Source: Pyrobaculum sp.
Lineage (GTDB): Archaea > Thermoproteota > Thermoprotei > Thermoproteales > Thermoproteaceae
Direction of reading: 5' to 3'
DNA length: 21,502 bases
Assembly (NCBI GenBank): GCA_046293555.1
Contig: JBKBOT010000026.1
Coordinates: 1 to 21,502, forward strand
Part shown: in pieces, positions 3,911-21,502 of the stretch
Numbering within the stretch: the first letter of the stretch is position 1
How the letters are laid out: each line of letters starts with the position of its first letter
Program-made: the position numbers and the translations under genes
Notes under the pieces: generated by a model
Seen by the model: only the letters and a program-made list of their open reading frames with translations
The model's database searches: none
Told to the model about the DNA's origin: nothing

Positions 3911-4017
3911 TACCTTTTCTAAGTGTAGACATAGTGATATAAATAGATAATGTTAGATAAAAATATATATTTTTGGACGTGGTCGCTCAGTATAAATATA
4001 TATTTCAATTATTAAGT

Positions 4018-4995
4018 GTGATTGCCCAAGTGGAGGTGTCTACACACTGTAACGCCATGTGTACCTACTGTCCAGTAACTATTTACCGCAGCCAGTGGGA
4101 TAGCCGTTTTATCGACACTACACTCTTCTCTAAAATAATACATGAGGGCATTGATATCATTAAACATATACATTTACAAGGTTGGGGAGAGCCGTTATTA
4201 CATCCACATTTTTCACATTTATTAAAAGAGGCAAGTCGTCTCTACAAGACAAGCTTTACTACAAACGCCACTCTGCTAAGCCGCCTGGCAGATAGAATAA
4301 TTGAGGCAGGGGTAGACGTGATGGCAGTCACCTTCGCCGGCGCTAAAGAGGAGACACACGACAGAATTAGAGTAGGGAACCCACTACGCTTGGTGACTCA
4401 CAACCTCAAAGCCTTTATAGAGAGAGCTAGATCCAATAAGCCACATGTCGTTGCTATATACATGATGTTAAGAGATACAGTAGAAGAATTGCCGCAATTT
4501 GTCGACCTAGCCGCCGCCATAGGTGTAGACGAAATTAGGTTAAGCAATCTGAGCTATATCCCACACCCAGATCTCTGGCACCTAAAGGTATACTCGCCTT
4601 TCTTCAAGCCGCCGCCACCTCACGTCTTGTCTATAATTCAGACGGCTAAAGAAAAAGCGGAGAAATACGGCATAAAGATATCCCATAGAAACTACACGCC
4701 TATAGAACACGTGGAATGTCCCGAATCCCCCACCACAACAATATACATAGACGTAAAGGGAAATGTGGCCCCATGTCCTTACCTCAGCCTAACTGGGGCT
4801 ATTAGATGTTTTGAGGGGAAATGTGAAAAACTACCCAAAGTGACATACGGCAACCTATATGAGAGTAGCCTCAAAGAGATATTAAAAAGTCGAAATTTCA
4901 AAATTTTTACAGATAAGTTTAGAAAACGTACAAACGAGTTATTTGCCCCACCCCCAGATGAATGTACAAAATGCTACCGGCTGTATTGGATCTAA
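4018..4995 (+). CDS. Radical SAM protein with C-terminal SPASM/Twitch domain
   Basis: CNAMCTYC (CxxxCxxC), LQGWGEPLLHP, FTTNATLL; C-terminal C..P...IYIDVKGNVAPC, YGNL, CTKC. Start set at GTG 4018, 27 nt after TATAAATA (3991). Confidence 0.88.
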   Translation: MIAQVEVSTHCNAMCTYCPVTIYRSQWDSRFIDTTLFSKIIHEGIDIIKHIHLQGWGEPLLHPHFSHLLKEASRLYKTSFTTNATLLSRLADRIIEAGVDVMAVTFAGAKEETHDRIRVGNPLRLVTHNLKAFIERARSNKPHVVAIYMMLRDTVEELPQFVDLAAAIGVDEIRLSNLSYIPHPDLWHLKVYSPFFKPPPPHVLSIIQTAKEKAEKYGIKISHRNYTPIEHVECPESPTTTIYIDVKGNVAPCPYLSLTGAIRCFEGKCEKLPKVTYGNLYESSLKEILKSRNFKIFTDKFRKRTNELFAPPPDECTKCYRLYWI

Positions 4996-8972: not shown

Positions 8973-10085
8973 ATGAAGAAGGTATATCTGGTCATAATAA
9001 TTGTGGTTATTATAGTAATTGCGGCAGTCCTCTTACTAACCACAATGTCCAAAGGGCCTTCTCCCGCGCCTGGACTGGTTTATAAAGGGTCTAAGGAGTA
9101 CTCTTTGCCTAGCTACTACTACCAGTGGTTAAACATACCGACACAAGTCGCCGTCAGGACTTATTTTGTGGAAGGTGTAAACGCGGCAGAGGTTTTAAAT
9201 TGGTATAAGGCAGAGCTGCCACGTGTGGGTTATGAAATTCTCCAGCCGCCTGTAATCCAAACTCTTTCAACACCTCAAGGCTCTTTAGAATGGGGACTTC
9301 TTATAGCTAAGAGAGGCGATATGGGCCTTGGGGTTTGGGCTGTCAGCGGGGCACAGGTGGCGGTAGAGGGCAGACGAGGCACGTTATATCTCGTGGCTGA
9401 AGGTAACATCAAAGAATTTGTGCCGCCCGAGACCTCGACTCCTGGCGAAAAACTACCGCCGACAGACTTGGCAAGTGGAGAAGAGCCAATAGAGAGATAT
9501 CCAGGTTCTAAAATGCTCACCTACCAGAAGAGCGAGGGCTTCCCCACAGTCATAATAATTGACTACGGGACGGCAGACAACATGCAGAAAGTGGCGGAGT
9601 GGTATAAGAAGGAGCTTCAGCTCAAAGGCTGGGATATAAAAGACGAGCGGAGAAGTGCAGAAAAAATCTCTCTACATCTCATAAAAGAGAGAGAGGAGCT
9701 GGGGGTAGTAATCTACGCCCCAACAAGCGAGAGAAGCTACACCTCGATATCTATCCACTACGGCTTGTATAAACTCCCCACTAGAGACTTGGCAAGTGGA
9801 GAAGAGCCAATAGAGAGATATCCAGGTTCTATAATGCTTAGACACTCCTCGACGACGTACATGGGCGTGAAGATGATAGACATAACATACGCCACCCACG
9901 ACGGCGTAGATAAAGTAGCCTCGTGGTACGACAGCTATCTGGCGGCGAACCAATGGCAAGTCGCCACGTCGTCGGTGTCAGACGGGGCAAAGACAGTCAC
10001 CGCCTTTAAGAAAAAGGCATTTATCTCACTCACTGTCTCGCCAAAGGCAGGCTACACCGAGATAAATATTGTATACCAAGGCTAG
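8973..10085 (+). CDS. Membrane-anchored extracellular protein with three repeated ~105-aa domains
   Basis: MKK plus hydrophobic anchor; three units with Y(P/K)GS...V..WY...L...(G)W/Y pattern; AT-rich TATA region upstream. Confidence 0.85.
   Translation: MKKVYLVIIIVVIIVIAAVLLLTTMSKGPSPAPGLVYKGSKEYSLPSYYYQWLNIPTQVAVRTYFVEGVNAAEVLNWYKAELPRVGYEILQPPVIQTLSTPQGSLEWGLLIAKRGDMGLGVWAVSGAQVAVEGRRGTLYLVAEGNIKEFVPPETSTPGEKLPPTDLASGEEPIERYPGSKMLTYQKSEGFPTVIIIDYGTADNMQKVAEWYKKELQLKGWDIKDERRSAEKISLHLIKEREELGVVIYAPTSERSYTSISIHYGLYKLPTRDLASGEEPIERYPGSIMLRHSSTTYMGVKMIDITYATHDGVDKVASWYDSYLAANQWQVATSSVSDGAKTVTAFKKKAFISLTVSPKAGYTEINIVYQG
9464..9831 (+). repeat. Perfect 47-bp intragenic direct repeat (9464-9510 and 9785-9831)
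   Basis: AGACTTGGCAAGTGGAGAAGAGCCAATAGAGAGATATCCAGGTTCTA twice, offset 321 bp (107 codons), encoding DLASGEEPIERYPGS. Confidence 0.95.
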
Positions 10086-10086
10086 T

Positions 10087-11658
10087 GTGAAAAAAGCTGT
10101 GTTTTTTATACTTTTCCTATTGGCGTTAATTTTTCTAATTGCCTATTTTGATAAAAAGGAGGCGGGTTTAGAAAGTATCTCCCCCCAAAAAAAGCTTGAA
10201 AACATCCCAGAAAACTACCTGCCGCCAAAACTTCCGTGGGGGCTAGAGAGGGGCAGCGCCGAGAGTGACAATTTTTACCCCTCCACACTTCCAAGAAAGC
10301 CAAAAGTAGTCTTTGTGGCTAACATCTCTGCAAATGTCGGCGGGAGGCTAGCCACCGCCGTTGTTGAAAGAGATAAAATTTTTCTAGCCGACAGCCGGGG
10401 GGTCTACGCCCTTAGAAGAGACGACGGCTCTTTAATCTGGGGCGTAGAGATATATCTCGACAACCTTTACGAAAGAAAAACCTCCCACCCACAGCCAGTA
10501 GAGAAGTGGAAAGCTTTAGGCCTGCAGAAGTTTGTCAAAACTTATGGAGTGGGGAAACACCTCTATGTAGCCACCACGTCAGATAAAGGAGAGGCCTATC
10601 TCCTCGCCTTTGATAAAGACACAGGCGACCTCATGTGGAAAACCGCGCTTAAGCCCGGCGGCCTGCCTCCCACCACAGATCTTGTGGTGACAGAGGGGAG
10701 AGTTTACGTAAGTAGCGGGGGTTATATCTACTGCGTCTCTGAAGACGGCCTCCTCCTCTGGCGTAGCGAAGTTGAGACAGAGGCCAGAGGCTTAGCCTAC
10801 GGCGGCGAGATGTTATTTGTAACATCCTCTAAGAAGCTTTATGCACTTGATGCAAAAACTGGCGAAGTTCTTTGGGTTTTTAAACACGACAACGTCTTAG
10901 CCACGCCGTCTTACAGAAGAGAAAAAATAATCCTATCTGACCTAGAGGGAGCCCTCCTGGCGCTTTCTAAAGACGGAAAACTTCTCTGGAAAAACCACCT
11001 GGGGGACGGAGGCCTCCACCTTGCGGTAAATACCCAAAATATCTTTGCGGCGGGGAGGGGAGTAAGTATCTTCACGCTAGATGGGGAAGCTAGGGGAAAC
11101 TTTACAACAGATGGCGAAGAGGGAGGAAGGCCGGTGGCGTCACGAGACGTGGTTATCCTGCCTGTGGCGAGACGTGGCGAGGGCAAGATCTACTTACTGT
11201 GGCGTGGTTGGGCAAAACTCGCCGAATTTATTTTTGACAACCAGGAGGTGTGGACGCCTACAGTCAGCGCCGCCTATGGTGAAATATATGTAGTTCCAAA
11301 TCCAAACCAGTTATACAAACTAGCCGACGTGGAAAAACCCCAGATAGCCGCCGTAGAGGCCAAGCTACAGAACAACACCTTAGTTCTCTATGTAAAGGCT
11401 TATGACGAGGGAAGCGCCATATATAAAGTCCTCCTAGCCTATAGCATAAACAACTCGCCATGGGGCTATATAGAGATGGAAATTGCAAAAAGATACGTCA
11501 CAGAGCCCACCGGCGGTTATGGCCTTAGAGAAGAAGACTACATAACCGCAATAGAGGCACAACCAGGCTCAACTATAGAATTTTACATCGTGGCTATAGA
11601 CAACTCTGGAAATTACGAAATTTCAAAAAACTACGCCTACCGCATCTCCCAACAATAA
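10087..11658 (+). CDS. Membrane-anchored PQQ-like beta-propeller repeat protein with probable C-terminal Ig-like domain
   Basis: Repeats ALRRDDGSLIW, AFDKDTGDLMW, ALDAKTGEVLW, ALSKDGKLLW; N-terminal KK plus TM; C-terminal EFYIVAIDNSGN. Start GTG 10087, 1 nt after the upstream stop. Confidence 0.85.
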   Translation: MKKAVFFILFLLALIFLIAYFDKKEAGLESISPQKKLENIPENYLPPKLPWGLERGSAESDNFYPSTLPRKPKVVFVANISANVGGRLATAVVERDKIFLADSRGVYALRRDDGSLIWGVEIYLDNLYERKTSHPQPVEKWKALGLQKFVKTYGVGKHLYVATTSDKGEAYLLAFDKDTGDLMWKTALKPGGLPPTTDLVVTEGRVYVSSGGYIYCVSEDGLLLWRSEVETEARGLAYGGEMLFVTSSKKLYALDAKTGEVLWVFKHDNVLATPSYRREKIILSDLEGALLALSKDGKLLWKNHLGDGGLHLAVNTQNIFAAGRGVSIFTLDGEARGNFTTDGEEGGRPVASRDVVILPVARRGEGKIYLLWRGWAKLAEFIFDNQEVWTPTVSAAYGEIYVVPNPNQLYKLADVEKPQIAAVEAKLQNNTLVLYVKAYDEGSAIYKVLLAYSINNSPWGYIEMEIAKRYVTEPTGGYGLREEDYITAIEAQPGSTIEFYIVAIDNSGNYEISKNYAYRISQQ

Positions 11659-12094: not shown

Positions 12095-12389
12095 TCGCCG
12101 TGTTTTTTCGCCGTGTTAGAGGGTGCCCCCTAACACAGCAACCCGCCAGACAACACGCCGCCGATAGAACTTTGTAAAGTGTGGCGTACCTCCCGTTTTT
12201 CTTTATAACGTAAGCTTTATATATTGATTTTACATTTGTCTACCCCCCTCGCCGTGTTAAAGCATTTAAAAAACGTCGTGCAACTTCCTCTTTACTTTTG
12301 TATACTATATATCGGTAAAGGGGATATGTGTATTTGTAAAGAGTTATCCAATTTATAAAACGTCGTGCAGCTTGAACCACGACGTCGAC
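12095..12389. repeat. Cluster of short direct and inverted repeats
   Basis: TCGCCGTGTT x3 (12095, 12108, 12249); imperfect IR 12110-12139; 23-mer ATTTAwAAAACGTCGTGCArCTT x2 (12264, 12351; 21/23 identical); 8-bp IR ACGTCGTG/CACGACGT (12360-12385). Confidence 0.8.
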
Positions 12390-12617
12390 GCCGAGACAAA
12401 CTGTCACGATGTAGACCACTCAAAAAATAACGGCGTGCCGAAAGAAATTAGAAAAACTTTGAAACTAGGCAAACACAGAAAAAGCCATGCGGCGTGTAAA
12501 ACCCCAAGACAGCGAGAGAAAAACTTAAAAACCCCCAAAAACAATTATCCAGAAACCCCAGAATCTCAAAGAGAGGATTGAAAGACGGCCATGTCCACGG
12601 GCTGGCCCTTCTAGCCT

Positions 12618-12874
12618 CACGCCATTGGCGTGGACTATATCCTTTTTCTTTTTCTCTCTCAACCCCGGGGGATGTGCCCCCGGGGGGCTTAGCCCCCGTC
12701 TGGCCCCACGCCAATGGTGAGTGTATCCTAATTCTCTATCTTTATCTCTAGCCACCCACCACGGGGGCGGCTGACTCCACGCCATCGTTATCAGGGGATC
12801 TTTCTTTCTCTCTTTTTCTTTCTCTCTTAGCCCTGGGGATGTGCCCCCGTGGGGCTAACCCCCATCTTACGCCA
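12618..12874. repeat. Two diverged copies of a pyrimidine-tract plus GC-rich hairpin unit
   Basis: Exact core GGGGATGTGCCCCCG at 12668 and 12835, each preceded by CTTTTTCTT..TCTCTC and followed by GGGGCT..CCCCC..ACGCCA. Confidence 0.8.
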
Positions 12875-12937
12875 CTGCCCTGACGCCGTATTTGTGATAT
12901 AAGTGTATTACATGTGTATTACGTTTTGAGAGACATC

Positions 12938-12950
12938 ACTGTTATAAATA
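12938..12950 (+). promoter_or_regulatory. Island promoter, copy 1 (extended TATA only)
   Basis: ACTGTTATAAATA 30 nt before ATG 12968; 12938-12962 is identical (25 nt) to 15608-15632. Confidence 0.8.
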
Positions 12951-12967
12951 TGGACGTTTCTATAGAC

Positions 12968-14101
12968 ATGGCCCAAACTCAAACCCCAGAACAAACAGTT
13001 GATCAACAAACGGTTATGAAGGATGTATGGCAGTTGATACGTAAGGACGTTGCTAATGTATTAGCCACAGAGCTTGACGAGGAAATTGCAAACGAATGTA
13101 CTGAGGCATTTTCATACTGTAGAACCGCGATTACGGGGTTGTGGATGGATTGGGATGGCGATGGTCCTGGTAAAAATGATCAGTTTGTGATGGATGTCAG
13201 ATGCGGCGATTATGATTGGCTAGAAGAGACGCTTTGTCATAATGAAGAAGATGATGAAGAAGGCGAGAAGGATGAAGAGGGTAGAGGGAGGAAACTCGGA
13301 GATATTTACGTCAATGTTAACGCTATTGACGTTGCTGTTGAATATATACTTGACTACTACAACCTGCCCCTCACAGAGGACGAATTGCTATACGCCATGT
13401 ACAAAGTAGCGCAAGAAGATGCCAACCTTGTGGCGCACATGGTGGCATACACTGCCGTGACGCCTATTTTGAGCTGGGCTAACGATCATGAGAAGCTGGG
13501 TGAGGCTGATGAATATGTGCGACAGTTTGCCGGTAAAGTTGTCGAAATGGGATTATACAATTATCCAGAGCTGCGTGAGTACGCCGATGGCATGGAGCCC
13601 GAGGAGGGTATATTTGTCCGCTTGACGGCTAACGGCCTCGATGACGTTTTCAGAAAAATAACTCCACAGTTTGCAAATGTATATCGTTATGCTAGGCCAG
13701 ATTCGGGTGAATGTTGGATATACTTCCATGATACAATAAGAATATGTAAAGACGAAAGTGAAGATAATAGATATGGGAGATTCACATACAAGGTCACAGT
13801 GGAGCACGATGGTCATACGTATAGTTATTACATCGATCCCTTGGATTTCACCAAGGTCATCGTGGAGACATTTAGCTATATATTCGACGTGGGGTACGTG
13901 GAGATGAGTAGAGCTCTCAGGAGGTTCATCGACGAGAACCCACGGTATGTTGTACCGATGGTGGAATATGCAATCGCCAAAAGGTGGCGTGATTTAAAAC
14001 TAACGCCTAGTGAGGAAGTGATTAAATACATCGACAAGTTTGAAGAATTTTTAGACAAATACATCGGCGTTGAGGAAGACGTTGAGGAAGATCAACAATA
14101 A
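12968..14101 (+). CDS. Acidic hypothetical protein (377 aa), probably two copies of a domain shared with 15638-16231
   Basis: Start moved to ATG 12968 on promoter spacing; D/E-rich (NEEDDEEGEKDEEG, EEDVEEDQQ); followed by a pyrimidine tract. Confidence 0.85.
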   Translation: MAQTQTPEQTVDQQTVMKDVWQLIRKDVANVLATELDEEIANECTEAFSYCRTAITGLWMDWDGDGPGKNDQFVMDVRCGDYDWLEETLCHNEEDDEEGEKDEEGRGRKLGDIYVNVNAIDVAVEYILDYYNLPLTEDELLYAMYKVAQEDANLVAHMVAYTAVTPILSWANDHEKLGEADEYVRQFAGKVVEMGLYNYPELREYADGMEPEEGIFVRLTANGLDDVFRKITPQFANVYRYARPDSGECWIYFHDTIRICKDESEDNRYGRFTYKVTVEHDGHTYSYYIDPLDFTKVIVETFSYIFDVGYVEMSRALRRFIDENPRYVVPMVEYAIAKRWRDLKLTPSEEVIKYIDKFEEFLDKYIGVEEDVEEDQQ

Positions 14102-14160
14102 CCCCTCTTTTTTCCCACCCTCCTTTTTCTCTCATTCCCCTAGCCCACTCTTTTTTCTTT
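14102..14160 (+). terminator. Pyrimidine-rich terminator
   Basis: TAA-CCCCTCTTTTTTCCCACCCTCCTTTTTCTCTC directly after the stop. Confidence 0.6.
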
Positions 14161-14318
14161 AGTTCATTAACCTTGCTATATCCTAAATCTTTCTCTCCCT
14201 CTCCCAGGCTGTGAGTTATCTCTCTCTTTTAACCCCCCTTTTCTACATCGGTGTGTTACGTCAGTTGTCTATATGCGCCATTGGCGCCTCTTTGTATATA
14301 TCAAAATTGTCCCGGCCA

Positions 14319-14363
14319 AAGTTATGTAATATCTCTACTTGTCGAACTTGACTGTTATAAATA
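14319..14363 (+). promoter_or_regulatory. Island promoter, copy 2 (full)
   Basis: AAGTTATGTAATATCTCTACTTGTCGAACTTGACTGTTATAAATA; 40/45 identical to 15576-15620. Confidence 0.85.
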
Positions 14364-14380
14364 ACTGCATTTAAAATTCC

Positions 14381-15487
14381 ATGGATTGGGTATATGATAT
14401 AAAGGCAGCTAGAGAGGTGGTGAATAGTGGTAAATTCAGCGTTGTTACCCACGGCGGCGTGGCCCATATGGATGACCTGCTTGCATCGGCCCTTCTGTAC
14501 AAACACACAGAAGCTGTGTACAGGCTGAATAGTTACGATGAAGTTGTTAGTGTGCCCGGCAACGTCCTCCTTGTGGACTTCGGCGATGCGTTTAGAGACA
14601 GGCTGCCGGAACGTTTCGCCGTGCTTGACCACCACGGCGCGCCGGATCCAGCCGCAGAACCATCATCCATAGTGCAGGTAGCAATGCTTCTAGATGTAAA
14701 ATCATCACCAATGGTGGTCACATTGACACATTTCGTAGACCTATTCGACCGTTTTGGAGTCTCTGTGAAGAAAATCGCAGGGCACTACGGCAGCTCTATG
14801 AACTTCGCCTTCACAAAATACTTTAGTGATTTCCACGGCCGTGTTTCAGACAGAATGTTAGAGTTATTGTCAGAAGCATATATGTCGAAAGTCGACGTGG
14901 GGTATGTCGAACTCTTCAACGCGTTTCAAATAGTGGAGAGACTGCCATACGGCCATCTGACTGAGATATTCCAACAAACCTTCACCCTGCTTAGACTTAT
15001 GCAGCGTGCCGCCAGAGACCCCTCTGTGGCTCTATCAAAAGAGGCTATCAACATCGGTTTTGGTATCGACTTCGGCTGTTATGCTGTGCTGGCAGTTCCG
15101 GAGCTTGAGCGTTATGCTCTCCAGGGTCTTGACAGATACTTCTCAGACGCCAAACGCGCTGCAGAGACAATTGTTAATAACAACTACATCGAGATAAAAC
15201 ATGGCGATATTACCGCTATCGCCATAGAGGACGCACTGCCGCCCATTTTACTTTGGCAGGCTTTGCAAGATTTAGACCGTGTGGAGAGTCCTACATTCGT
15301 TGTTGTAAGAGACTTAAGGAACCCTGGTGCGTATGCCGTCTGGAGGCCAAACGTATATGCGAACAAGATAGACTTCCGAAAGCTGTCCGGCGATTCTGTT
15401 ATCTTCAAACACAACACGGGCTTTATGGCTGTGGTAAAAGCAAAAAGCGCCGAGGAGGCGGCACGGCTTGTCTCACAACAGCTCTAA
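14381..15487 (+). CDS. MYG1-like (UPF0160) DHH-superfamily metal-dependent hydrolase/exonuclease
   Basis: VVTHGGVAHMDDLLASALL (MYG1 THxGxxHxD), LLVDFG, VLDHH, FVDLFD, and C-terminal IFKHNTGFMA (MYG1 FxHxxGF). Confidence 0.8.
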   Translation: MDWVYDIKAAREVVNSGKFSVVTHGGVAHMDDLLASALLYKHTEAVYRLNSYDEVVSVPGNVLLVDFGDAFRDRLPERFAVLDHHGAPDPAAEPSSIVQVAMLLDVKSSPMVVTLTHFVDLFDRFGVSVKKIAGHYGSSMNFAFTKYFSDFHGRVSDRMLELLSEAYMSKVDVGYVELFNAFQIVERLPYGHLTEIFQQTFTLLRLMQRAARDPSVALSKEAINIGFGIDFGCYAVLAVPELERYALQGLDRYFSDAKRAAETIVNNNYIEIKHGDITAIAIEDALPPILLWQALQDLDRVESPTFVVVRDLRNPGAYAVWRPNVYANKIDFRKLSGDSVIFKHNTGFMAVVKAKSAEEAARLVSQQL

Positions 15488-15550
15488 CCCCCGTTTTTTC
15501 AAACCTCTTCTTTTTCTATTTTTGTCTATTTACGCCATCTCTCTTTCTTT
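15488..15550 (+). terminator. Pyrimidine-rich terminator
   Basis: TAA-CCCCCGTTTTTTCAAACCTCTTCTTTTTCT. Confidence 0.6.
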
Positions 15551-15575
15551 ATACATATCCAAACTGCTCTTGCTG

Positions 15576-15620
15576 AAGTTGTGTAATATCTCTAACTGTC
15601 GAACGTAACTGTTATAAATA
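15576..15620 (+). promoter_or_regulatory. Island promoter, copy 3 (full)
   Basis: AAGTTGTGTAATATCTCTAACTGTCGAACGTAACTGTTATAAATA; motifs at -55/-40/-30 to ATG 15638. Confidence 0.85.
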
Positions 15621-15637
15621 TGGACGTTTCTAATAAC

Positions 15638-16231
15638 ATGGCTCAAACAGAACAAATAACACAAGTACAACAGACAGTACAAACGATATTAAAACACTGG
15701 AAGTCCATTAAGCCGCATATTGCCGATGTTTTCAGGGAAAATGAATATGACGAGCGTGTGTTAGATGCAAATGAGGAGGATAACAAATGGGTTGGCATCT
15801 ACGTTGTAGAGGGTAATGAAACTCCGCCCGAGAATGCTAAACTCGCAGTTAAGATCAGCTGTGGTAGATATGTAAAGTACATATTACCTAAAGAGCTCTA
15901 TGGTGACGAAGAGGAGGTTGAAATAAGTTGTAAAGGCGGTTTTAAAATCTACATAGACCTACAGCGGTTTGTAGAGGCTGTCGCAGGTTTTGTAGCAGAT
16001 GAGCTAGAAGTTGAGGAAGGCGATGTATTAAAAAAGCTTGAATTCCTTGCGCAACATTACCCACGGCAATTCGCTGAGATAGTTGTACCAATCGCAATCG
16101 CCTTGGGCCCCGACGTCGAGGCCGACTTACAACCAGATGCTTATTATCACGCCTTTGGTCTCATATGCCGAGAGTTATCCCTTGAAGCCGAAGTCTGTGA
16201 GGAGGTTGAAAAACATCCATTTTCTAAATAA
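15638..16231 (+). CDS. Acidic hypothetical protein (197 aa), paralog of 12968-14101
   Basis: Same 5' flank and MAQT..QQTV N-terminus; KISCGRY vs DVRCGDY; start by promoter spacing. Confidence 0.85.
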   Translation: MAQTEQITQVQQTVQTILKHWKSIKPHIADVFRENEYDERVLDANEEDNKWVGIYVVEGNETPPENAKLAVKISCGRYVKYILPKELYGDEEEVEISCKGGFKIYIDLQRFVEAVAGFVADELEVEEGDVLKKLEFLAQHYPRQFAEIVVPIAIALGPDVEADLQPDAYYHAFGLICRELSLEAEVCEEVEKHPFSK

Positions 16232-16325
16232 ACCCTTTTTTCAACCCCCCTTTTTCTCTCTTTTCTTTCCACCCTCTTTTCTCATTTTTTTAAAAAAAAA
16301 GTAGGGTGGATGGGGGAGAAAAAAT
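16232..16325. terminator. Bidirectional terminator region between convergent genes
   Basis: Pyrimidine tract then T7 (16285-16291) abutting A9 (16292-16300), followed by a purine tract. Confidence 0.6.
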
Positions 16326-16613
16326 TTATGTTTTTGATAGGAAGTGTTGTATTACCGAGTCGGAGGCGGCGCCTGCAAGCTGGAATAATAAGTACATAAG
16401 AAGGAGGAATGCGATGAACTTCAAAAGCTCGCGCTGTATGTCCTTCTTTCTACTTTTCCTCCTGCCGTTTTTCTTACTTCTGCTTTCCCTTTTGCCATTT
16501 TTCACAACCTTTACGCTTGTGACTATGCCGTTTTCTCCCCTCTTGCCGTTTTTCTTTTTGTCGTTTACAACTACGACGACACTCTCCCCATCCTTTTCCT
16601 TTTTCTTTTCCAT
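16326..16613 (-). CDS. Small Lys/Arg-rich protein with C-terminal TM helix (95 aa)
   Basis: Very basic N-terminus and LLKFIAFLLLMYLLFQLAG helix; minus-strand TATATAAATA at -27 and GTAATATC at exactly -55 as in the other island promoters. Confidence 0.7.
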   Translation of the reverse strand: MEKKKEKDGESVVVVVNDKKKNGKRGENGIVTSVKVVKNGKRESRSKKNGRRKSRKKDIQRELLKFIAFLLLMYLLFQLAGAASDSVIQHFLSKT

Positions 16614-16630
16614 GTTTTTAATACTGTGTG

Positions 16631-16668
16631 TATTTATATACGTGTTGTTCTGTTTTTGTCGATATTAC
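16631..16668 (-). promoter_or_regulatory. Island promoter variant on minus strand
   Basis: GTAATATC (16668-16661) at -55 and TATATAAATA (16640-16631) before ATG 16613. Confidence 0.65.
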
Positions 16669-16739
16669 CTACGTCTTTGGCCGGATGTTGCTTGTGGCTT
16701 GATGTGTCTGCCGCCGTATGTTCGGCATCCTCGTCTATA

Positions 16740-16784
16740 GTCGTATGTAATATCTCTATCCGTCGAACTTCACTGTTATAAATA
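16740..16784 (+). promoter_or_regulatory. Island promoter, copy 4 (full)
   Basis: GTCGTATGTAATATCTCTATCCGTCGAACTTCACTGTTATAAATA; -55/-40/-30 to ATG 16802. Confidence 0.85.
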
Positions 16785-16801
16785 CACATACATTTATTGT
16801 T

Positions 16802-17368
16802 ATGTTAAACACAATCCCTGGAATAAAAATCGCTAATGTTCAAAAGCTTAAACAAACAAATGAGCTCCCCATCTTGTGGCTGGGGGAGAAAAACGTGGCA
16901 ATTAACGCCAGCGGTTTTGGCTACATGGTCGAAGTGCCACACAACGTTTTTGCCAAGTTTGGACTCACGTGGAACAACGCGGTATATCCAAAGCTGCCCT
17001 ACGTGACTGCAGTTCAATACGTCGAGAGGGTCATCGGGGCCGTCAAGCCGTTTGCCCCCGGCGTCTACATCGTGGCCGGGGGGGTGCCGCCTATGGTCGT
17101 CAAGGCGGAAAACGTCATAAAGGTACACAGGAAAAACATAACCACAGCCACATCTCGCCACGGCCACATCATCGTACCATCTGGGATTGGCAACACGGCA
17201 AACGCGGTTGTGGGCAGGCCTGTAGACCTCTTTACAAATGTTGTGGACACCACAAACATGAAGGCCATACTGTACGTGCCCCCGGTGCGCCTGCTTGTGT
17301 TATGCGGCGAAATTTACGCGGTGCCCAAGGGCGAGAAGATTCCCAACTTCGACGAGGTGCCATGCTAG
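16802..17368 (+). CDS. Hypothetical protein (188 aa)
   Basis: ATG at conserved promoter distance; protein-like composition; no family recognised. Confidence 0.8.
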   Translation: MLNTIPGIKIANVQKLKQTNELPILWLGEKNVAINASGFGYMVEVPHNVFAKFGLTWNNAVYPKLPYVTAVQYVERVIGAVKPFAPGVYIVAGGVPPMVVKAENVIKVHRKNITTATSRHGHIIVPSGIGNTANAVVGRPVDLFTNVVDTTNMKAILYVPPVRLLVLCGEIYAVPKGEKIPNFDEVPC

Positions 17369-17748
17369 CCAGCACAGTTGTTGAGTACAGCAAACCACTC
17401 CCCGTATTGTTATTAAAAGAAGATAGAGTGGCCACGGCTGGCTTTGGCTATGCGGTGAGGTTTATAACAGATAGAGACCCCGGCGAGCTCTACATTGCTG
17501 TGTACTACACATTGTTAAAAACGTCTAATTTGTGTATCGCTTATTTTGACTCGCTTAATAACAAGATTAGAAAGAGTAAAAGATGTGTTGATTACGGACG
17601 TGACATAAAGGCGAGAAGGCGTTTGTATTTCCACGAGAGGCGACGGCCGTATGATGTGTATTTACACATAAGAGCAAATGATTATATAGGCATAGCGGGC
17701 GATTGGCATAATCAGGACTTCACGTCATACGTCTACATACTTCTCTAA
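17362..17748 (+). CDS. Hypothetical protein (128 aa), translationally coupled to and partly similar to the upstream gene
   Basis: ATG 17362 with SD-like GAGGTG (17354-17359), overlapping the upstream TAG; the longer ORF-track N-terminus is a shadow frame; followed by TAACCCCCCTTTTTC. Confidence 0.75.
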   Translation: MLASTVVEYSKPLPVLLLKEDRVATAGFGYAVRFITDRDPGELYIAVYYTLLKTSNLCIAYFDSLNNKIRKSKRCVDYGRDIKARRRLYFHERRRPYDVYLHIRANDYIGIAGDWHNQDFTSYVYILL

Positions 17749-17811
17749 CCCCCCTTTTTCCCTTCCCCCTCCCCCTCTTTTCTTTAACCTCTTTCCTCGA
17801 TTACATGTTTT

Positions 17812-17856
17812 GTCGTATGTAATATCTTTATCTGTCGATAGAAACCTTTATAAATA
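17812..17856 (+). promoter_or_regulatory. Island promoter, copy 5
   Basis: GTCGTATGTAATATCTTTATCTGTCGATAGAAACCTTTATAAATA; GTAATATC -55, GTCGA -40, TTATAAATA -26 to ATG 17874. Confidence 0.8.
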
Positions 17857-17873
17857 CTTACATTTTTACATCC

Positions 17874-18611
17874 ATGGAAGGGAGAATTACGGCAAAGGTC
17901 AGAGACCTAGACGCAATGCTTTCTGCCGTAGAGGCTGTAAATAAATATGCCGTATTACACTTTAGGGAAAATGGCGTATACGTGGGACAGATGGACCAGG
18001 GAAAGAACGTCTTCATGAAGATGTTTGTCAGTAAAAGCTTCTTCCAATCATACAGCTCACCTGGCATTACCGCCGTAACGGATGTGGTCACACTCAAGGA
18101 GTTAGTTAAGGCGTTAAAACAACAATTCGTTGAGATTGTAATACATGATGACGTCATTCACATCGCTGACCAAACGGTGAAGGCTGACGAATATGTTGAG
18201 GATTATGTCGATTTAGAGGTAAAAGATGTGTTTACAGTTGTTGGATTAGACGCATCGCCTACAGAGCTTAAGAAGTTTATCGCCACGCTTGACGACTTCT
18301 TTGTGGAGAAAATCGATATGTCTATAGACAAAAAGATTACGAAAATTACGGGAAGGCTTGACGGCAGGTATGTCTTTGAGGCTACATATGAAAACAACTC
18401 ACATGACGGCAGGGAACAAGCATCTGCATCATATAGCGTACGTTTGTTGACATTGCCGCTAGGGGCTATTTCCAAGGTGGCAAACATCATAAGGCTTTAC
18501 ACCTTCAAGGTCGGCGTTGGTGAAAAGGGACTTTTGATGTTATACCTAGAGGATAGGTATGTTAACGAGTACATAAAACTTGTGTACTACATAACACCGA
18601 GGATTGATTGA
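17874..18611 (+). CDS. Divergent PCNA-like DNA polymerase sliding clamp
   Basis: 245 aa (PCNA size); N-terminal AVLHFRENGVYVGQMDQGKNVFMKMFVSKSFFQSY matches the PCNA pattern, as do ASASYS and C-terminal KLVYYITPRID (cf. LxYYLAPxIE). Confidence 0.8.
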   Translation: MEGRITAKVRDLDAMLSAVEAVNKYAVLHFRENGVYVGQMDQGKNVFMKMFVSKSFFQSYSSPGITAVTDVVTLKELVKALKQQFVEIVIHDDVIHIADQTVKADEYVEDYVDLEVKDVFTVVGLDASPTELKKFIATLDDFFVEKIDMSIDKKITKITGRLDGRYVFEATYENNSHDGREQASASYSVRLLTLPLGAISKVANIIRLYTFKVGVGEKGLLMLYLEDRYVNEYIKLVYYITPRID

Positions 18612-18633
18612 AAAAAAAATCCTTTTTTTTTTT
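18612..18633. terminator. Bidirectional A-run/T-run terminator
   Basis: A9-TCC-T13 spanning the convergent stops of the PCNA-like and Hsp20 genes. Confidence 0.65.
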
Positions 18634-18990
18634 TTAGTCTATCCTTATTTTAAACCACTTCTTCTTTTTCGGTAGCTCTACAGACAAGACTCCGTTTTTG
18701 TATGTAGTCCTTGCCCCATCTGGCTCTACTGTATCCGGCAGCTTTATCTCGTAGTACCTCCGCCCGTCGGATACAATGAGGAGATCTCTCAGCCCTATCT
18801 CGTAACGCTTCCGCCCATCGGACTCAACGAAGAGATCTCTAAACACGTTTACAGCGATATCACGTGCGCCAGGGAGTTCCATGGTCACAACAATCTTATC
18901 GCCATAGTCAATCACGTCTACGATGTTGTCTTGCTGTGTATCGCAACCGCGACAAGGCATCCGCCTCCTCCATATATCTCCAGGTGCCAT
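18634..18990 (-). CDS. hsp20: Hsp20/alpha-crystallin family protein with internal 17-aa tandem duplication
   Basis: VDVIDYGDKIVVTMELPG, YEIKLPDTVEPD, TTYKNGVLSVELPK; start ATG 18990 with TTTAAATA at -27 and GTCGA at -40. Confidence 0.85.
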   Translation of the reverse strand: MAPGDIWRRRMPCRGCDTQQDNIVDVIDYGDKIVVTMELPGARDIAVNVFRDLFVESDGRKRYEIGLRDLLIVSDGRRYYEIKLPDTVEPDGARTTYKNGVLSVELPKKKKWFKIRID

Positions 18991-19054
18991 GGAGTTAATA
19001 ATATACGCATATTTAAAGTTTTCTGTCGACAAAAAACGGAAATATTTACTGCAG

Positions 19055-19432
19055 TTATTGTAACACAAATCGACGGATGTAAGAAAAGTCCAGCTTCTCC
19101 ACCTCGATGGTCAAAACGCCGTTGTCATATGTGGCCTTCAAGGTGTCTGGATCCACCTCGTGGACGAGATCAACTCTGTAGATAAGCCTTCGATTGCCCC
19201 CCTTGGCCCTCACCTCTATACTGCGTCTGTTCTTCCCAACTTTTATCTTTATGTCGTCTTTCTTGACGTCTTGTGGAAACCTCGCCACAACCCTCACCCT
19301 GTCTCCAAGGTCGTCAACTTTTGGTGTGGAATTATCTACATCACAACAAACTTCTAGAGGTATTGGCATTTTAATCGTGCGACATGTCCCCTCGTACCCT
19401 TTGCATAACCACTCCGCTATCCAGGTTAGCAT
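19055..19432 (-). CDS. hsp20: Hsp20/alpha-crystallin family protein
   Basis: DLGDRVRVVARFP, VKKDDIKI, EVDPDTLKATYDNGVLTIEVEK; ATG 19432 overlaps the upstream stop (start uncertain). Confidence 0.82.
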   Translation of the reverse strand: MLTWIAEWLCKGYEGTCRTIKMPIPLEVCCDVDNSTPKVDDLGDRVRVVARFPQDVKKDDIKIKVGKNRRSIEVRAKGGNRRLIYRVDLVHEVDPDTLKATYDNGVLTIEVEKLDFSYIRRFVLQ

Positions 19433-20343
19433 GGAGATAAACATATGTTTAAAAGCCTGTCGGCATAGATCTCATAAAGCCTCCTAAAGGCAGCAGGCCG
19501 TGGCGACATCTCTGACCTCAACGTCACCCATGCATTCACCAACGCCCTGTATTCAAATTTGTCCAACCCCCCAAAGAAGTTATCCACAAGGGGGAAACCA
19601 GTCTCTCTTAAGAAGCGATATAGCTCTTCAAGCTCGCCATCTTTGGGCTTGGCCTTGCCGAACCTCACCTCCCTATTTGTGACATGTCTCTCGCCTCCGC
19701 CAGGCAGAATGACCTTACCATATGCAGCCTTCAGACGCCATGTGGCCGCATCTGTCGTATCTACACCCAAGGCCCTAAGTATGGGCGTCACGGCCGGGCT
19801 GCCGAGGCCAAACACATGTAGCCTGCCTTTAAACCGCCGCCTGGCGGCTTCGATAATGGTGAGGGCATGGCGGCGGGACGTCCCCCTGGTGGTGAGGACA
19901 TACGGCACAGCCCCGCCGATGGCGAGAGCAGGCGCGTTTTCATACCTCTCTAAATACTCTAGAGATAGCTTGCGGTCCTTATAGACATGTAACACGGGCA
20001 CAACCTCCATCGTCTTGGACAGCTTCAACCAGTTTTCATACGACCTTTCGAGCTTCTTTCTTGCTAACTCAGGCGGGTCTTGTGGTGTGGGAGGCACGTC
20101 CAGGGAGAAGTAGAGATCTGCGTCCACACTTTGGTATATTCTAACTATATATTGTACATCCACAGGGATACCCCTCCTCATGACCTGGTAGCCGCCTGAG
20201 TCGAGCCAAAGTTCGCCGTCATATTGTAACATGGATCGGGGATCGCCCCTCACCTCCAAGGCGTTTATGAGTAGGGCTGGTACCCTGAAGTACAGCCAGG
20301 GCTTGGGGCTGGCCTTAATGGGCGTGCCCAATGCGATTTTCAT
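19426..20343 (-). CDS. tRNA-guanine transglycosylase (TGT)-fold protein, short and DpdA-like
   Basis: LWLDSGGYQ, FSLDVPP, VVPVLH, LAIGG, LHVFGLG, GVDTTDAATW; no CxCxxC Zn site and no PUA domain. Confidence 0.8.
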   Translation of the reverse strand: MKIALGTPIKASPKPWLYFRVPALLINALEVRGDPRSMLQYDGELWLDSGGYQVMRRGIPVDVQYIVRIYQSVDADLYFSLDVPPTPQDPPELARKKLERSYENWLKLSKTMEVVPVLHVYKDRKLSLEYLERYENAPALAIGGAVPYVLTTRGTSRRHALTIIEAARRRFKGRLHVFGLGSPAVTPILRALGVDTTDAATWRLKAAYGKVILPGGGERHVTNREVRFGKAKPKDGELEELYRFLRETGFPLVDNFFGGLDKFEYRALVNAWVTLRSEMSPRPAAFRRLYEIYADRLLNICLSPC

Positions 20344-20347
20344 TAAA

Positions 20348-20584
20348 TTATTCTACCCCTCTGTCACGCACCCCCCTCGCCCCGGCCGGCCTATGGCGCA
20401 CCGCCTCGCGGGCAGGGTATTCCTGCGATCTATATTTGTCGAGAAATTTCCACAACGCGGTGCGGACCACCTCGCCGCGGTTTGGAAACAACCCGATCTC
20501 TATGAGGTAGTCAATTTGTTCTAAGTCCTCTTTCGGCACTTTGGCTGCTACTACACCAGTTTCAACTAGACGTCTCCTAGGCAT
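20348..20584 (-). CDS. Ribbon-helix-helix (CopG/Arc/MetJ) DNA-binding protein
   Basis: VVAAKVPKEDLEQIDYLIEIGLFPNRGEVVRTAL matches the archaeal RHH pattern. Confidence 0.85.
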   Translation of the reverse strand: MPRRRLVETGVVAAKVPKEDLEQIDYLIEIGLFPNRGEVVRTALWKFLDKYRSQEYPAREAVRHRPAGARGVRDRGVE

Positions 20585-20613
20585 GTTTTAAACATAGTAC
20601 ATATTTTTAAACT
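20585..20613. promoter_or_regulatory. Compact 29-bp bidirectional promoter
   Basis: TTTAAA at 20587-20592 and 20606-20611, each 27 nt from the distal divergent ATG (20614 and 20584). Confidence 0.65.
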
Positions 20614-20898
20614 ATGTGGCGGTGGTTCTACCTGGCGGCCGAGGTGGGCGTCGCCGTGTTGTATAGCCTCCTACTAGCCGTGGTTGTTTTCTACACGTTG
20701 GCTTTTGGCGTGGCGTATAAACTCCTTGGCATATATGCCGTATGGATATATATACTGTTTATCGTGTTGACTATATTTGCCGCCATGGGGATGATGTACA
20801 TATTGATTTGCAACCACGGCAAAAGGGCGGCGGTAAGGCTGTTGGCATACTACTCCACAATTGTCATGATGGCTACAACCATGGTATGGGTCCTATAG
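20614..20898 (+). CDS. Small three-TM membrane protein
   Basis: 94 aa, three hydrophobic segments; TATA at -27. Confidence 0.7.
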   Translation: MWRWFYLAAEVGVAVLYSLLLAVVVFYTLAFGVAYKLLGIYAVWIYILFIVLTIFAAMGMMYILICNHGKRAAVRLLAYYSTIVMMATTMVWVL

Positions 20899-20932
20899 CA
20901 TGTGGTTTAAATACGTATAAGGTTTTTTGGAT

Positions 20933-21304
20933 GTGAGTCAGGAGGATTACATAAAGGCCGAGGCGCTTGCCTACAAGATATTCGAGACCGTGGGCGAGAG
21001 GTATATGAACGACGTCGTTGAGGAACACGGGGAGGAGATTATAGACAGACTCCGCGAGCTCGCGCCAATGTTAGGCGGCAGGGTGAGGACGATAGGTCGC
21101 GTCAAGGAGTTTGAGCTCGACGAATCGACGGCAGATGTGGTTGACGCCGTCATAAAAGAGGAGCTGGAGGGGTTGAAAAGACAGTTTGTCGACGAGGTGG
21201 TTCCACGTATTATTGAAAAGCTGCGGGCCAGACTGGCGGAGAGAGCTCCCCACAGGAGGTTTGAGCCGCGGGAGGTTGAGCCTCGAGAGAGGGAGTTAGA
21301 TTAA
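20933..21304 (+). CDS. Hypothetical charged helical protein
   Basis: E/R-rich ORF; start reassigned to GTG 20933, 27 nt after TTTAAATA (20906). Confidence 0.75.
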   Translation: MSQEDYIKAEALAYKIFETVGERYMNDVVEEHGEEIIDRLRELAPMLGGRVRTIGRVKEFELDESTADVVDAVIKEELEGLKRQFVDEVVPRIIEKLRARLAERAPHRRFEPREVEPRERELD

Positions 21305-21314
21305 TACGTCTTTT

Positions 21315-21337
21315 GTCGAGGTTAACTGTTATAAATA
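21315..21337 (+). promoter_or_regulatory. Island promoter, copy 6 (GTCGA plus extended TATA)
   Basis: GTCGAGGTTAACTGTTATAAATA; -40/-30 to ATG 21355. Confidence 0.8.
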
Positions 21338-21354
21338 AAAGTTTTTTTATTTCC

Positions 21355-21502
21355 ATGGAGACTGTCGGTGGAGATATACCAAGCGTTTCAAACAACACTA
21401 CCAAACGATCTACAGCGATGTTGGGACTCATCGCAATTGTGGCGTTTATGGCCATCGTAATAGCAATGGCGCTTTCTGTATACGTCCTACCCGCCGGGGT
21501 TG
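21355..21502 (+). CDS. Membrane-anchored hypothetical protein, 5' part (runs off window; not in ORF track)
   Basis: METVGGDIPSVSNNTTKRSTAMLGLIAIVAFMAIVIAMALSVYVLPAGV..., open to the end of the window, with the conserved promoter upstream. Confidence 0.7.
   Translation, partial: METVGGDIPSVSNNTTKRSTAMLGLIAIVAFMAIVIAMALSVYVLPAGV

Follow-up and report, generated by a model that had tools for sequence, protein, structure and literature searches.

DNA in which 7-deazaguanines take the place of guanine has so far been found, to our knowledge, in phages, in a small number of archaeal viruses and in bacterial Dpd islands. Here we describe a gene on a 21,502-nucleotide stretch of Pyrobaculum DNA (the window) that encodes a short, zinc-less protein of the TGT fold resembling the DpdA enzymes of these systems. 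We tentatively read it as a DpdA-type DNA-guanine transglycosylase that uses preQ0 made by the host, with the window copy serving the virus- or plasmid-like island around it, and give this reading a probability of roughly 0.45.

Among viruses, DpdA has been recorded in 12 Ligamenvirales and two Bicaudaviridae (Hutinet et al. 2019, PMC6884629), and the crenarchaeal proteins STSV2_15 and STSV1 ORF18, together with the rudiviral SIRV2 ORF310 and SBRV1 ORF19, are counted as DpdA in the portions of two surveys used here (PMC6884629, PMC10516641). The presence of dPreQ0 in phage DNA is reported to require CAjan DpdA (PMC6884629), and STSV2 DNA is reported to carry dCDG, with homologues of DpdA and ArcS the only pathway genes given for this virus in the passages concerned (Cui et al. 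2023, PMC10516641). Phage 9g DpdA is described as having lost two of its four zinc ligands (Hutinet et al. 2017, PMC5699537), while the structural account of the bacterial enzyme from Salmonella Montevideo (PDB 7ui4) has Asp130 and His181 positioned, by modelling, for binding the base (PMC10164549).

The gene in question is the following:

19426 to 20343, minus strand: short zinc-less TGT-fold (DpdA-like) transglycosylase of 305 amino acids with an ATG start (Pfam, PHROG, alignment, structural model, fold search and trees)

Its translation carries the motifs WLDSGGYQ (D48), FSLD (D82), VPVLH (H119), AIGG (G143), HVFGLG (H176) and GVDTTD (D198). The Pfam TGT model (PF01702) matches at E 6.9e-9 and 35.7 bits (cut-off 26.3), and PHROG 887, annotated 'queuine tRNA-ribosyltransferase', at E 2.6e-22. 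Across a family alignment of 80 sequences D48, G50, D82, P116, G143, H176, G179, D198, P214, R266 and N270 never vary and at least 90% of the sequences have H119; both catalytic aspartates, the substrate aspartate and the GG and HxFG motifs, picked out in an earlier reading of the DNA letters (the sequence-only reading), are therefore real features of the family. That reading had also seen a histidine where TGT enzymes usually have glutamine, and profile alignments against PDB chains, used to compare catalytic-site positions, agree, pairing H119 with Gln169 of Pyrococcus horikoshii ArcTGT and with the AHG-motif histidine of Salmonella DpdA 7ui4; the change from glutamine thus corresponds to His181 of that enzyme (PMC10164549). 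In a wider alignment of 246 sequences (all proteins returned by our searches, eight viral proteins and the genome's own ArcTGT, after five sequences shorter than 200 residues were dropped) this column holds histidine in 237 and a CxCxxC motif is found in 96. The claim that the protein has neither a zinc-binding cysteine cluster nor a PUA domain holds as well, its cysteines being confined to the last seven residues (the C-terminal tail NICLSPC) with no CxCxxC.

An AlphaFold2 model of the window protein, built on the 80-sequence alignment, has a mean pLDDT of 95.8 and a pTM of 0.93. Foldseek against solved structures places P. horikoshii ArcTGT (1iq8) first (E 2.2e-13, TMq 0.72), followed by QTRT1 and bacterial TGT, and 1iq8 is also the best solved match by sequence (E 3e-12 with the single sequence, 1.8e-26 with the profile). 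Chance would not give agreement anywhere near as strong as that of the family models and the fold. The two proteins share the catalytic barrel and the preQ0-type GG(A/V)VP loop. Unlike ArcTGT, whose residues 55-265 alone are matched, the window protein has no C1, C2 or PUA domain and no zinc subdomain, possesses about 35 fewer N-terminal residues and has histidine in place of Gln169. Because the aligned core opens at ArcTGT residue 55 (profile position 19), the N-terminal lid of the tRNA enzymes is probably missing; Salmonella DpdA is likewise reported to be without this lid in the part of its structural description used here (PMC10164549). In our reading the enzyme is, almost certainly, catalytically active and exchanges a base for a 7-deazaguanine of the preQ0 kind.

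The analysis establishes the fold, the intactness of the active site, the family tree, the distribution, the number of copies and the gene contexts; the base exchange itself, the base used and a DNA target are what we infer. The reaction would proceed as follows. Asp198 would attack C1' of a guanine nucleotide within a polynucleotide, with Asp48 acting as general acid/base. The Watson-Crick edge of the base would be recognised by Asp82 and His119, the preQ0-like 7-substituent would sit in the GGAVP loop, and guanine would be swapped for a 7-deazaguanine made by the host (preQ0 or a precursor). On the model of the viral relatives the substrate is most likely double-stranded DNA, and an enzyme encoded in a virus- or plasmid-like stretch would mark the DNA of that element or add a second sequence specificity.

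The viral relatives were sought by tblastn against a phage collection of 50,697 records, 80 of which matched. The best matches are STSV1, STSV2 and STSV4 (35-36% identity, E 6e-41 to 6e-40; STSV2 35%), rudiviruses come next (about 25% identity, E down to 1e-20), and coliphages of the CAjan and Seurat type match with 27% identity over 77% of the protein (E 7e-5), one such record annotating the gene '7-deazaguanosine inserting enzyme'. In BFVD the fold is matched best by the protein of rudivirus SBRV1, from end to end (TMq 0.73, TMt 0.75), and a scan of IMG/VR with the family alignment found three loci only, in STSV1, STSV2 and one rudivirus-like contig. We placed these proteins in a quick IQ-TREE analysis of 86 rows picked from the 246 and rooted on four ArcTGTs, a superclade tree made up without sequences of bacterial DpdA, DpdA2-4, ArcS or bacterial TGT. 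In it ArcTGT stands apart from all 82 other rows with support of 100. The deep branches retain CxCxxC, and a zinc-less subclade consists of CAjan DpdA, a clade of proteins from the order Thermoproteales, to which Pyrobaculum belongs, and an STSV/rudivirus clade. The order's clade (97) is sister (89) to the clade (100) that holds STSV1/2/4 and five rudiviral proteins.

The window protein resembles the crenarchaeal viral DpdA proteins in architecture: these are single-domain proteins of 266-310 residues without CxCxxC, with DSGG(Y/F)Q, SLD, P-x-x-H, GG and catalytic Asp motifs. Unlike the viral proteins, which belong to viruses of Sulfolobales, the present family is cellular and forms a vertical core gene of another order, and the window copy derives from the host's own gene. 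STSV2, moreover, pairs its DpdA with an ArcS-like gene in the cited passages (PMC10516641), whereas the recurrent pathway neighbour here is QueF-L alone, in some genera. With phage DpdA of the CAjan/9g type the window protein shares the TGT fold, the catalytic Asp pair, the conserved histidine and a degenerate or absent zinc site (for 9g as described in PMC5699537), and with CAjan DpdA its place in the zinc-less subclade; unlike CAjan, which has its own preQ0 genes beside dpdA, the window has none, and identity is only 27%. With bacterial DpdA it shares the Asp/Asp/His arrangement of the active site, and 7ui4 is the second-best solved relative of the family profile. The CxCx2Cx22H zinc site of 7ui4, and the large insertion said to be pinned by that site (PMC10164549), are absent from the window protein, and no DpdB or dpd cluster was found, the DpdB search being one that lacked a positive control.

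Models of the established enzymes score the window protein below threshold or miss it. The ArcTGT/TgtA equivalog TIGR00432 gives 55.4 bits against a cut-off of 350 and the general TGT model TIGR00449 20.6 bits against 47.6; the bacterial TGT model TIGR00430 and the ArcS model NF040592 are absent among its hits at E ≤ 1, and PADLOC returns no match. Across the whole genome the NCBIfam DpdA model NF041059 draws a response from ArcTGT alone (23 bits against a cut-off of 200). A scan of 54 superclade members gave some match to the PADLOC DpdA model for 26 and to the NCBIfam DpdA model for 25, the best of these 25 at E 7.1e-17; the single member examined in full reaches 49 bits, where the cut-off is 200.

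A scan of genome contigs with the single protein gave four loci only, and distribution was therefore counted genome by genome, with a match threshold of E ≤ 1e-10, across 62 genomes of the order. The short protein is present in 61 of them, in all 37 of good quality and in all nine genera, the sole genome without a match being 54% complete. In an evenly drawn sample of the phylum (301 genomes, 270 of them outside the order) 49 are positive, and the 18 of these that lie outside the order are clustered in a few families. A set of 5.8 billion proteins yielded 102 relatives, the named ones from Pyrobaculum, Thermoproteus, Vulcanisaeta and Caldivirga plus two proteins from Njordarchaeales metagenome-assembled genomes, mostly labelled 'tRNA-ribosyltransferase' or hypothetical. 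Descent was followed in a careful IQ-TREE analysis of 36 rows, made up of 29 loci from the order survey, four further loci and the three copies of the present genome; the remaining surveyed genomes, for which no locus was fetched, were left out. Every genus forms a single group and the four label changes are the minimum possible, which, by the evidence of this tree, makes the family an ancient core gene passed down vertically within the order.

The genome itself holds three short copies: the window copy (contig C26), one at C21:18566-19444 that is 76% identical to it, and one at C1:40277-41164 that is 70% identical. Three copies are seen in no other of the 62 genomes, two of which (G045 and G003) have a weak second match. 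In the 36-row tree the window and C21 copies pair (100/98), the C1 copy joins them (99/91) and the trio is sister to the nearest species (100/99), the branch of the window copy being the longest of the three (0.31 against 0.16-0.17). Since pairwise dN/dS among the copies is 0.13-0.16 with dS at 1.3-1.5, the duplicates are evidently old and kept under purifying selection. A decaying pseudogene was rejected on these ratios and on the retention of all catalytic residues. A recent import of the window copy from a Sulfolobus virus was rejected too, as the copy nests within its own genus. The C1 copy occupies the conserved position with genus-typical neighbours, while a comparison of neighbours over 21 loci (open reading frames, ORFs, of at least 70 residues, all-against-all blastp) found none that the window or C21 copy has in common with any compared locus. 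The tree marks the window copy as a duplicate, particular to this lineage, of a host core gene and not as virus-derived. Clustering with an order-wide chromosomal paralogue, one half of the outcome that the sequence-only reading had named in advance as refuting it, is thus what we find, and it leaves the DNA reading neither proved nor overturned. The DpdA-like assignment of that reading stands in so far as sequence, fold and tree fit viral DpdA, but the paralogue with which the gene clusters is chromosomal, conserved and found in 61 of the 62 genomes, which also removes the implication of an orphan confined to an island; the context of the window copy is indeed unshared.

Genes for a host supply of preQ0, which the sequence-only reading took as established for archaea, are present here. 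The genome encodes QueC (C34), a QueD-type PTPS (C2) and QueF-L (C1:44463-44675, 3.3 kb from the core copy), and a full ArcTGT of 492 residues lies elsewhere, on contig C7 (locus L001 1465-2943). As had been stated before, the window holds none of folE, queC, queD or queE among the 20 ORFs scanned against Pfam; its radical-SAM gene at 3973-4995 carries a SPASM domain. No dpdB-K genes appear among those 20 ORFs either, and the DpdB model NF041060 has no match in the genome or in 14 control genomes, a search run without a positive control. The genome's own ArcTGT reads AIGSP where P. horikoshii has IGGVVP and shows only C-x4-C in place of CxCxxC; by this comparison, the housekeeping ArcTGT of the lineage has an altered pocket and zinc site, and the short paralogue keeps the canonical GGAVP loop.

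The surroundings of the window copy comprise the following features:

20601 to 20611, minus strand: TATA-like box TTTAAAAATAT, putative promoter 17-27 nt upstream of the ATG of the next gene (read from the sequence)
20348 to 20584, minus strand: ribbon-helix-helix (RHH) regulator of 78 amino acids, lead gene of the unit, separated by 4 nt from the transglycosylase gene downstream (Pfam RHH_8 E 2.6e-4, under its cut-off; PHROG 876 E 0.0023)
19055 to 19444, minus strand: Hsp20/CS-domain small heat-shock protein of 129 amino acids, overlapping the transglycosylase 3' end by 19 nt (Pfam HSP20 E 2.9e-6, CS E 6.1e-6)
18634 to 19068, minus strand: second Hsp20 small heat-shock protein of 144 amino acids, overlapping the first Hsp20 gene by 14 nt (Pfam HSP20 E 6.8e-6)
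18611 to 18619, minus strand: run of nine T just past the second Hsp20 stop, putative terminator (read from the sequence)
17874 to 18611, plus strand: very divergent PCNA-like sliding clamp of 245 amino acids, an orphan convergent with the unit (structure search)
12585 to 21502, no strand: low-GC stretch, its genes mostly orphans, containing the unit and extending past the contig end (GC, ORF scans, repeat, depth)
14323 to 14385, plus strand: promoter-like repeat of 63 nt, reference copy (GTAATATCTCTA..TGTCGAAC..ACTGTTATAAATA..ATG)
15580 to 15642, 16744 to 16806, 17816 to 17878 and 21297 to 21359, with a partial copy at 12933 to 12978: other copies of this repeat

The RHH, transglycosylase and two Hsp20 genes probably form one transcription unit, which the RHH protein may regulate. 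A role for RHH as a partner of the family at large was not upheld, since no RHH homologue stands beside the short transglycosylase gene in any other fetched locus. The PCNA-like clamp is barely detected by sequence (Pfam Hus1 E 0.0035; PDB PCNA E 0.1), its identification coming from an Atlas structure search with a TM of 0.85 to PCNA clusters, many of them viral, and a feature score of 0.96.

From about 12.6 kb to the contig end GC content is 0.41-0.48, against 0.52 for the genome. Pfam and PHROG give no hit for most ORFs of this stretch, with PHROGs returning nothing for nine of ten island ORFs. The 63-nt repeat, which ends in a TATA box and is made up of a conserved box, then TGTCGAAC and then ACTGTTATAAATA about 20 nt ahead of the ATG, precedes five plus-strand island genes; when its 38-nt core was searched in the whole genome with up to seven mismatches, four sites fell on C26 and one weak site on C35, and this near-confinement to the window's contig suggests a private regulon of the element. 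The stretch looks like an integrated virus or plasmid remnant, although the window searches found no integrase, att site or tRNA in it, and it is this element-like stretch that the window copy most likely serves. The term island, used in the sequence-only reading, fits in that the surroundings are low in GC and unshared with relatives, but the join to the left flank has no independent confirmation: no source-run contig among those listed bridges 12505-12585, and contigs of a second run (X3) include none covering the stretch. Read depth in the source run is 16-19 over the stretch and 18.4 over the flank.

At that join, a sequence resembling a CRISPR leader (12165-12584) closes with one repeat at 12561-12584 (Rfam CRISPR-DR45). 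More than 10 further contigs of the genome carry this leader and repeat, and in the source run the repeat runs on into varied spacers. The join of leader and repeat to the island on the right may be an assembly artefact or an insertion at the array. Left of the leader, 8973-11658 encodes a 370-residue protein of unknown function and a PQQ beta-propeller protein, also on lower-GC DNA; the propeller gene (10069-11658) was not found in five related genomes, the left border of the island is not placeable by synteny, and the variable region may start near 8.5 kb. Within the island, a 368-residue protein of no known family (14381-15487, plus strand) has three paralogues at 60-62% identity on C23, C25 and C41, and no relative in IMG/VR.

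Downstream of the C21 copy (C21:17700-24514, locus L055) come genes for a helix-turn-helix (HTH) protein weakly matching an ORF131-like domain of Pyrobaculum spherical virus, for an additional TFIIB, for a dCTP deaminase and for an N6 DNA methylase; a 60% paralogue of the methylase lies on C13. With two further copies elsewhere, the deaminase is present three times in the genome, at 93-95% identity, and it is 47% identical to that of SBRV1, which is itself two genes from the rudiviral TGT homologue. In the viruses, the STSV1/2/4 homologue adjoins ThyX and in STSV2 also lies near a DNA methyltransferase, and that of SBRV1 lies near a dCTP deaminase. In three of four fetched rudiviral loci (L065, L066 and L068: SIRV2, SIRV9 and SRV) the TGT homologue adjoins a gene annotated 'aminoacid permease', which could be a base transporter for precursor salvage.

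Core loci have other company. In Pyrobaculum a divergently transcribed gene for an unknown 157-residue protein adjoins the short gene in nine of 11 core loci, and a gene for an unknown protein of about 360 residues and a Trm112-like gene are also genus-typical neighbours; for the conserved upstream neighbours (157 and 364 residues) a PDB sequence search gave nothing below E 0.1 and Pfam gave nothing. In all five Vulcanisaeta/Caldivirga-type loci (L049-L053) a HerA-like DUF87 ATPase of about 530 residues directly adjoins the short gene on its upstream side, and in the four Vulcanisaeta-type loci a UbiA-family gene follows the ATPase. In L050, the locus that was scanned, an Nre repair gene comes next after UbiA and a DUF2848 gene lies downstream of the transglycosylase.

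We prefer a DNA target because the protein groups with viral DpdA, carries the DpdA-type histidine and has lost all tRNA-holding parts, because a complete ArcTGT/QueF-L route for tRNA exists elsewhere in the genome, and because the extra copies sit with DNA-metabolism genes (the PCNA-like clamp in the window; the dCTP deaminase and N6 DNA methylase on C21). The comparison with hidden Markov models and the phylogeny, proposed with the sequence-only reading, went the same way in splitting the family from ArcTGT (100) and grouping it with viral DpdA, but brought no bacterial DpdA model match: neither NCBIfam NF041059 nor PADLOC DpdA matches the window protein at E ≤ 1, the first of a number of points that weigh against DNA as the target. 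With the family profile, ArcTGT 1iq8 reaches 96 bits, against 41.5 bits for Salmonella DpdA (E 7.9e-10) and about 30 bits for bacterial TGT, and the CAjan DpdA branch is very long (2.92), which makes its placement in the tree unsure. A literature search found no report of a modified deoxynucleoside in any member of the order. For STSV2, dCDG is reported as rare, at 0.04% of G, and in the passages concerned nothing but gene content links it to the viral DpdA (PMC10516641). Occurring once per genome, in 61 of 62 genomes and with strictly vertical descent, the family resembles a housekeeping RNA-modification gene and not one for defence or anti-restriction; the Trm112-like gene near the short gene in Pyrobaculum is a neighbour from the RNA world, and no restriction-like partner was found among the scanned neighbours. 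In the Thermoproteus-type genus QueF-L stands directly beside the short gene in eight of nine genomes (downstream and co-directional in seven, convergent in one), the ninth genome being 76% complete with no QueF-L match, and QueF-L is reported to convert preQ0-tRNA, and not free preQ0, to archaeosine in vitro (PMC5485725).

Several of these points also speak for an RNA-guanine transglycosylase, a serious rival, held somewhat less likely than a DNA target, in which the protein is a second, minimal enzyme of the archaeosine pathway that places preQ0 into tRNA off G15 or into other RNA, QueF-L then converting preQ0 to archaeosine, and the island copies are spare or retargeted. An RNA target would be preferred because of the housekeeping-like vertical inheritance of an order-wide and mostly single-copy gene, the missing restriction partner and the RNA-modification neighbours, which in the 13 Pyrobaculum genomes with both genes on one contig include QueF-L at 3.3-33 kb. 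ArcTGT, furthermore, is the closest solved relative in sequence and fold, and its pocket is altered in the order (AIGSP for IGGVVP), whereas the short protein retains GGAVP. Yet the short protein is without every known tRNA-binding module of ArcTGT and its zinc subdomain, and G+15 is already explained by ArcTGT plus QueF-L. The superclade has no known RNA-acting member, those of its members tied to experiment being linked to DNA in the sections of the reports cited (PMC6884629, PMC10516641). QueF-L, too, is above cut-off in only 41 of the 62 genomes: none above the cut-off was found in genera g3, g4 and g5 or in the larger part of g6 and g7, all of which have the short gene. The distance between the two genes is about 1 Mb in three complete genomes of the Vulcanisaeta type. 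DNA may alternatively be the target on a broader scale, which we hold to be rather unlikely, the whole order of hyperthermophiles using this stand-alone enzyme to write a 7-deazaguanine into its own chromosomal DNA as a heritable mark and mobile elements having captured and diverged copies of the host gene; the base would then be preQ0, perhaps matured to deoxyarchaeosine by QueF-L where this is adjacent, and element DNA would bear this mark or some variant.

The window and C21 copies could instead be non-chromosomal cargo of separate viruses or plasmids from related hot-spring Pyrobaculum, misbinned or joined to this genome, with an anti-restriction DpdA serving the elements alone. The unbridged interval at 12505-12585 would fit this, as would the island-specific promoter-like repeat, the orphan genes and the viral-type PCNA, the weak match of the C21 HTH protein to ORF131 of Pyrobaculum spherical virus, and the three dCTP deaminases at 93-95% identity, which suggest repeated elements. 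We consider it improbable, given that island depth equals flank depth, that both copies nest in the lineage's own clade next to the core copy, that estimated contamination of the genome is 0.14%, and that IMG/VR holds no close viral relative, its three loci all being of STSV or rudivirus types. Least probable of all is a TGT-fold enzyme with some other activity, such as a salvage enzyme, or a DNA glycosylase that takes out a damaged or modified guanine and puts no 7-deazaguanine in its place. The position of the Vulcanisaeta-type gene beside a HerA-like ATPase, with the Nre repair gene two genes further upstream, and the absence of a modification-defining partner conserved across the order would suit such an activity, but the complete preQ0-type pocket (D82, H119, GGAVP) and both catalytic aspartates are conserved as in base-exchange enzymes, and adjacency to QueF-L ties the short gene to 7-deazaguanine chemistry.

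Our search of the literature, apart from the gene lists that supplement PMC6884629 and PMC10516641, turned up no paper on a cellular DpdA-like gene in this order. New here are the presence of three copies, two of them element-borne and descended from the host gene, the RHH-transglycosylase-Hsp20-Hsp20 unit and the count of QueF-L adjacency. If the DNA target is true, this would be the first cellular, non-island case, a stand-alone DpdA-like gene passed on by vertical descent and present in 61 of 62 genomes; with an RNA target, the archaeosine pathway would gain a minimal RNA transglycosylase that is new and likewise undescribed. The organisms of the order grow near 100 °C, and we may speculate that at such temperatures a 7-deaza purine could affect depurination or duplex stability. 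The gene is carried by cultured species, among them Pyrobaculum islandicum, P. neutrophilum, P. oguniense, Thermoproteus tenax and Caldivirga maquilingensis. One core copy together with two old, selected copies on element-like DNA would amount to a natural experiment, pointing to a contest between host and element over the mark.

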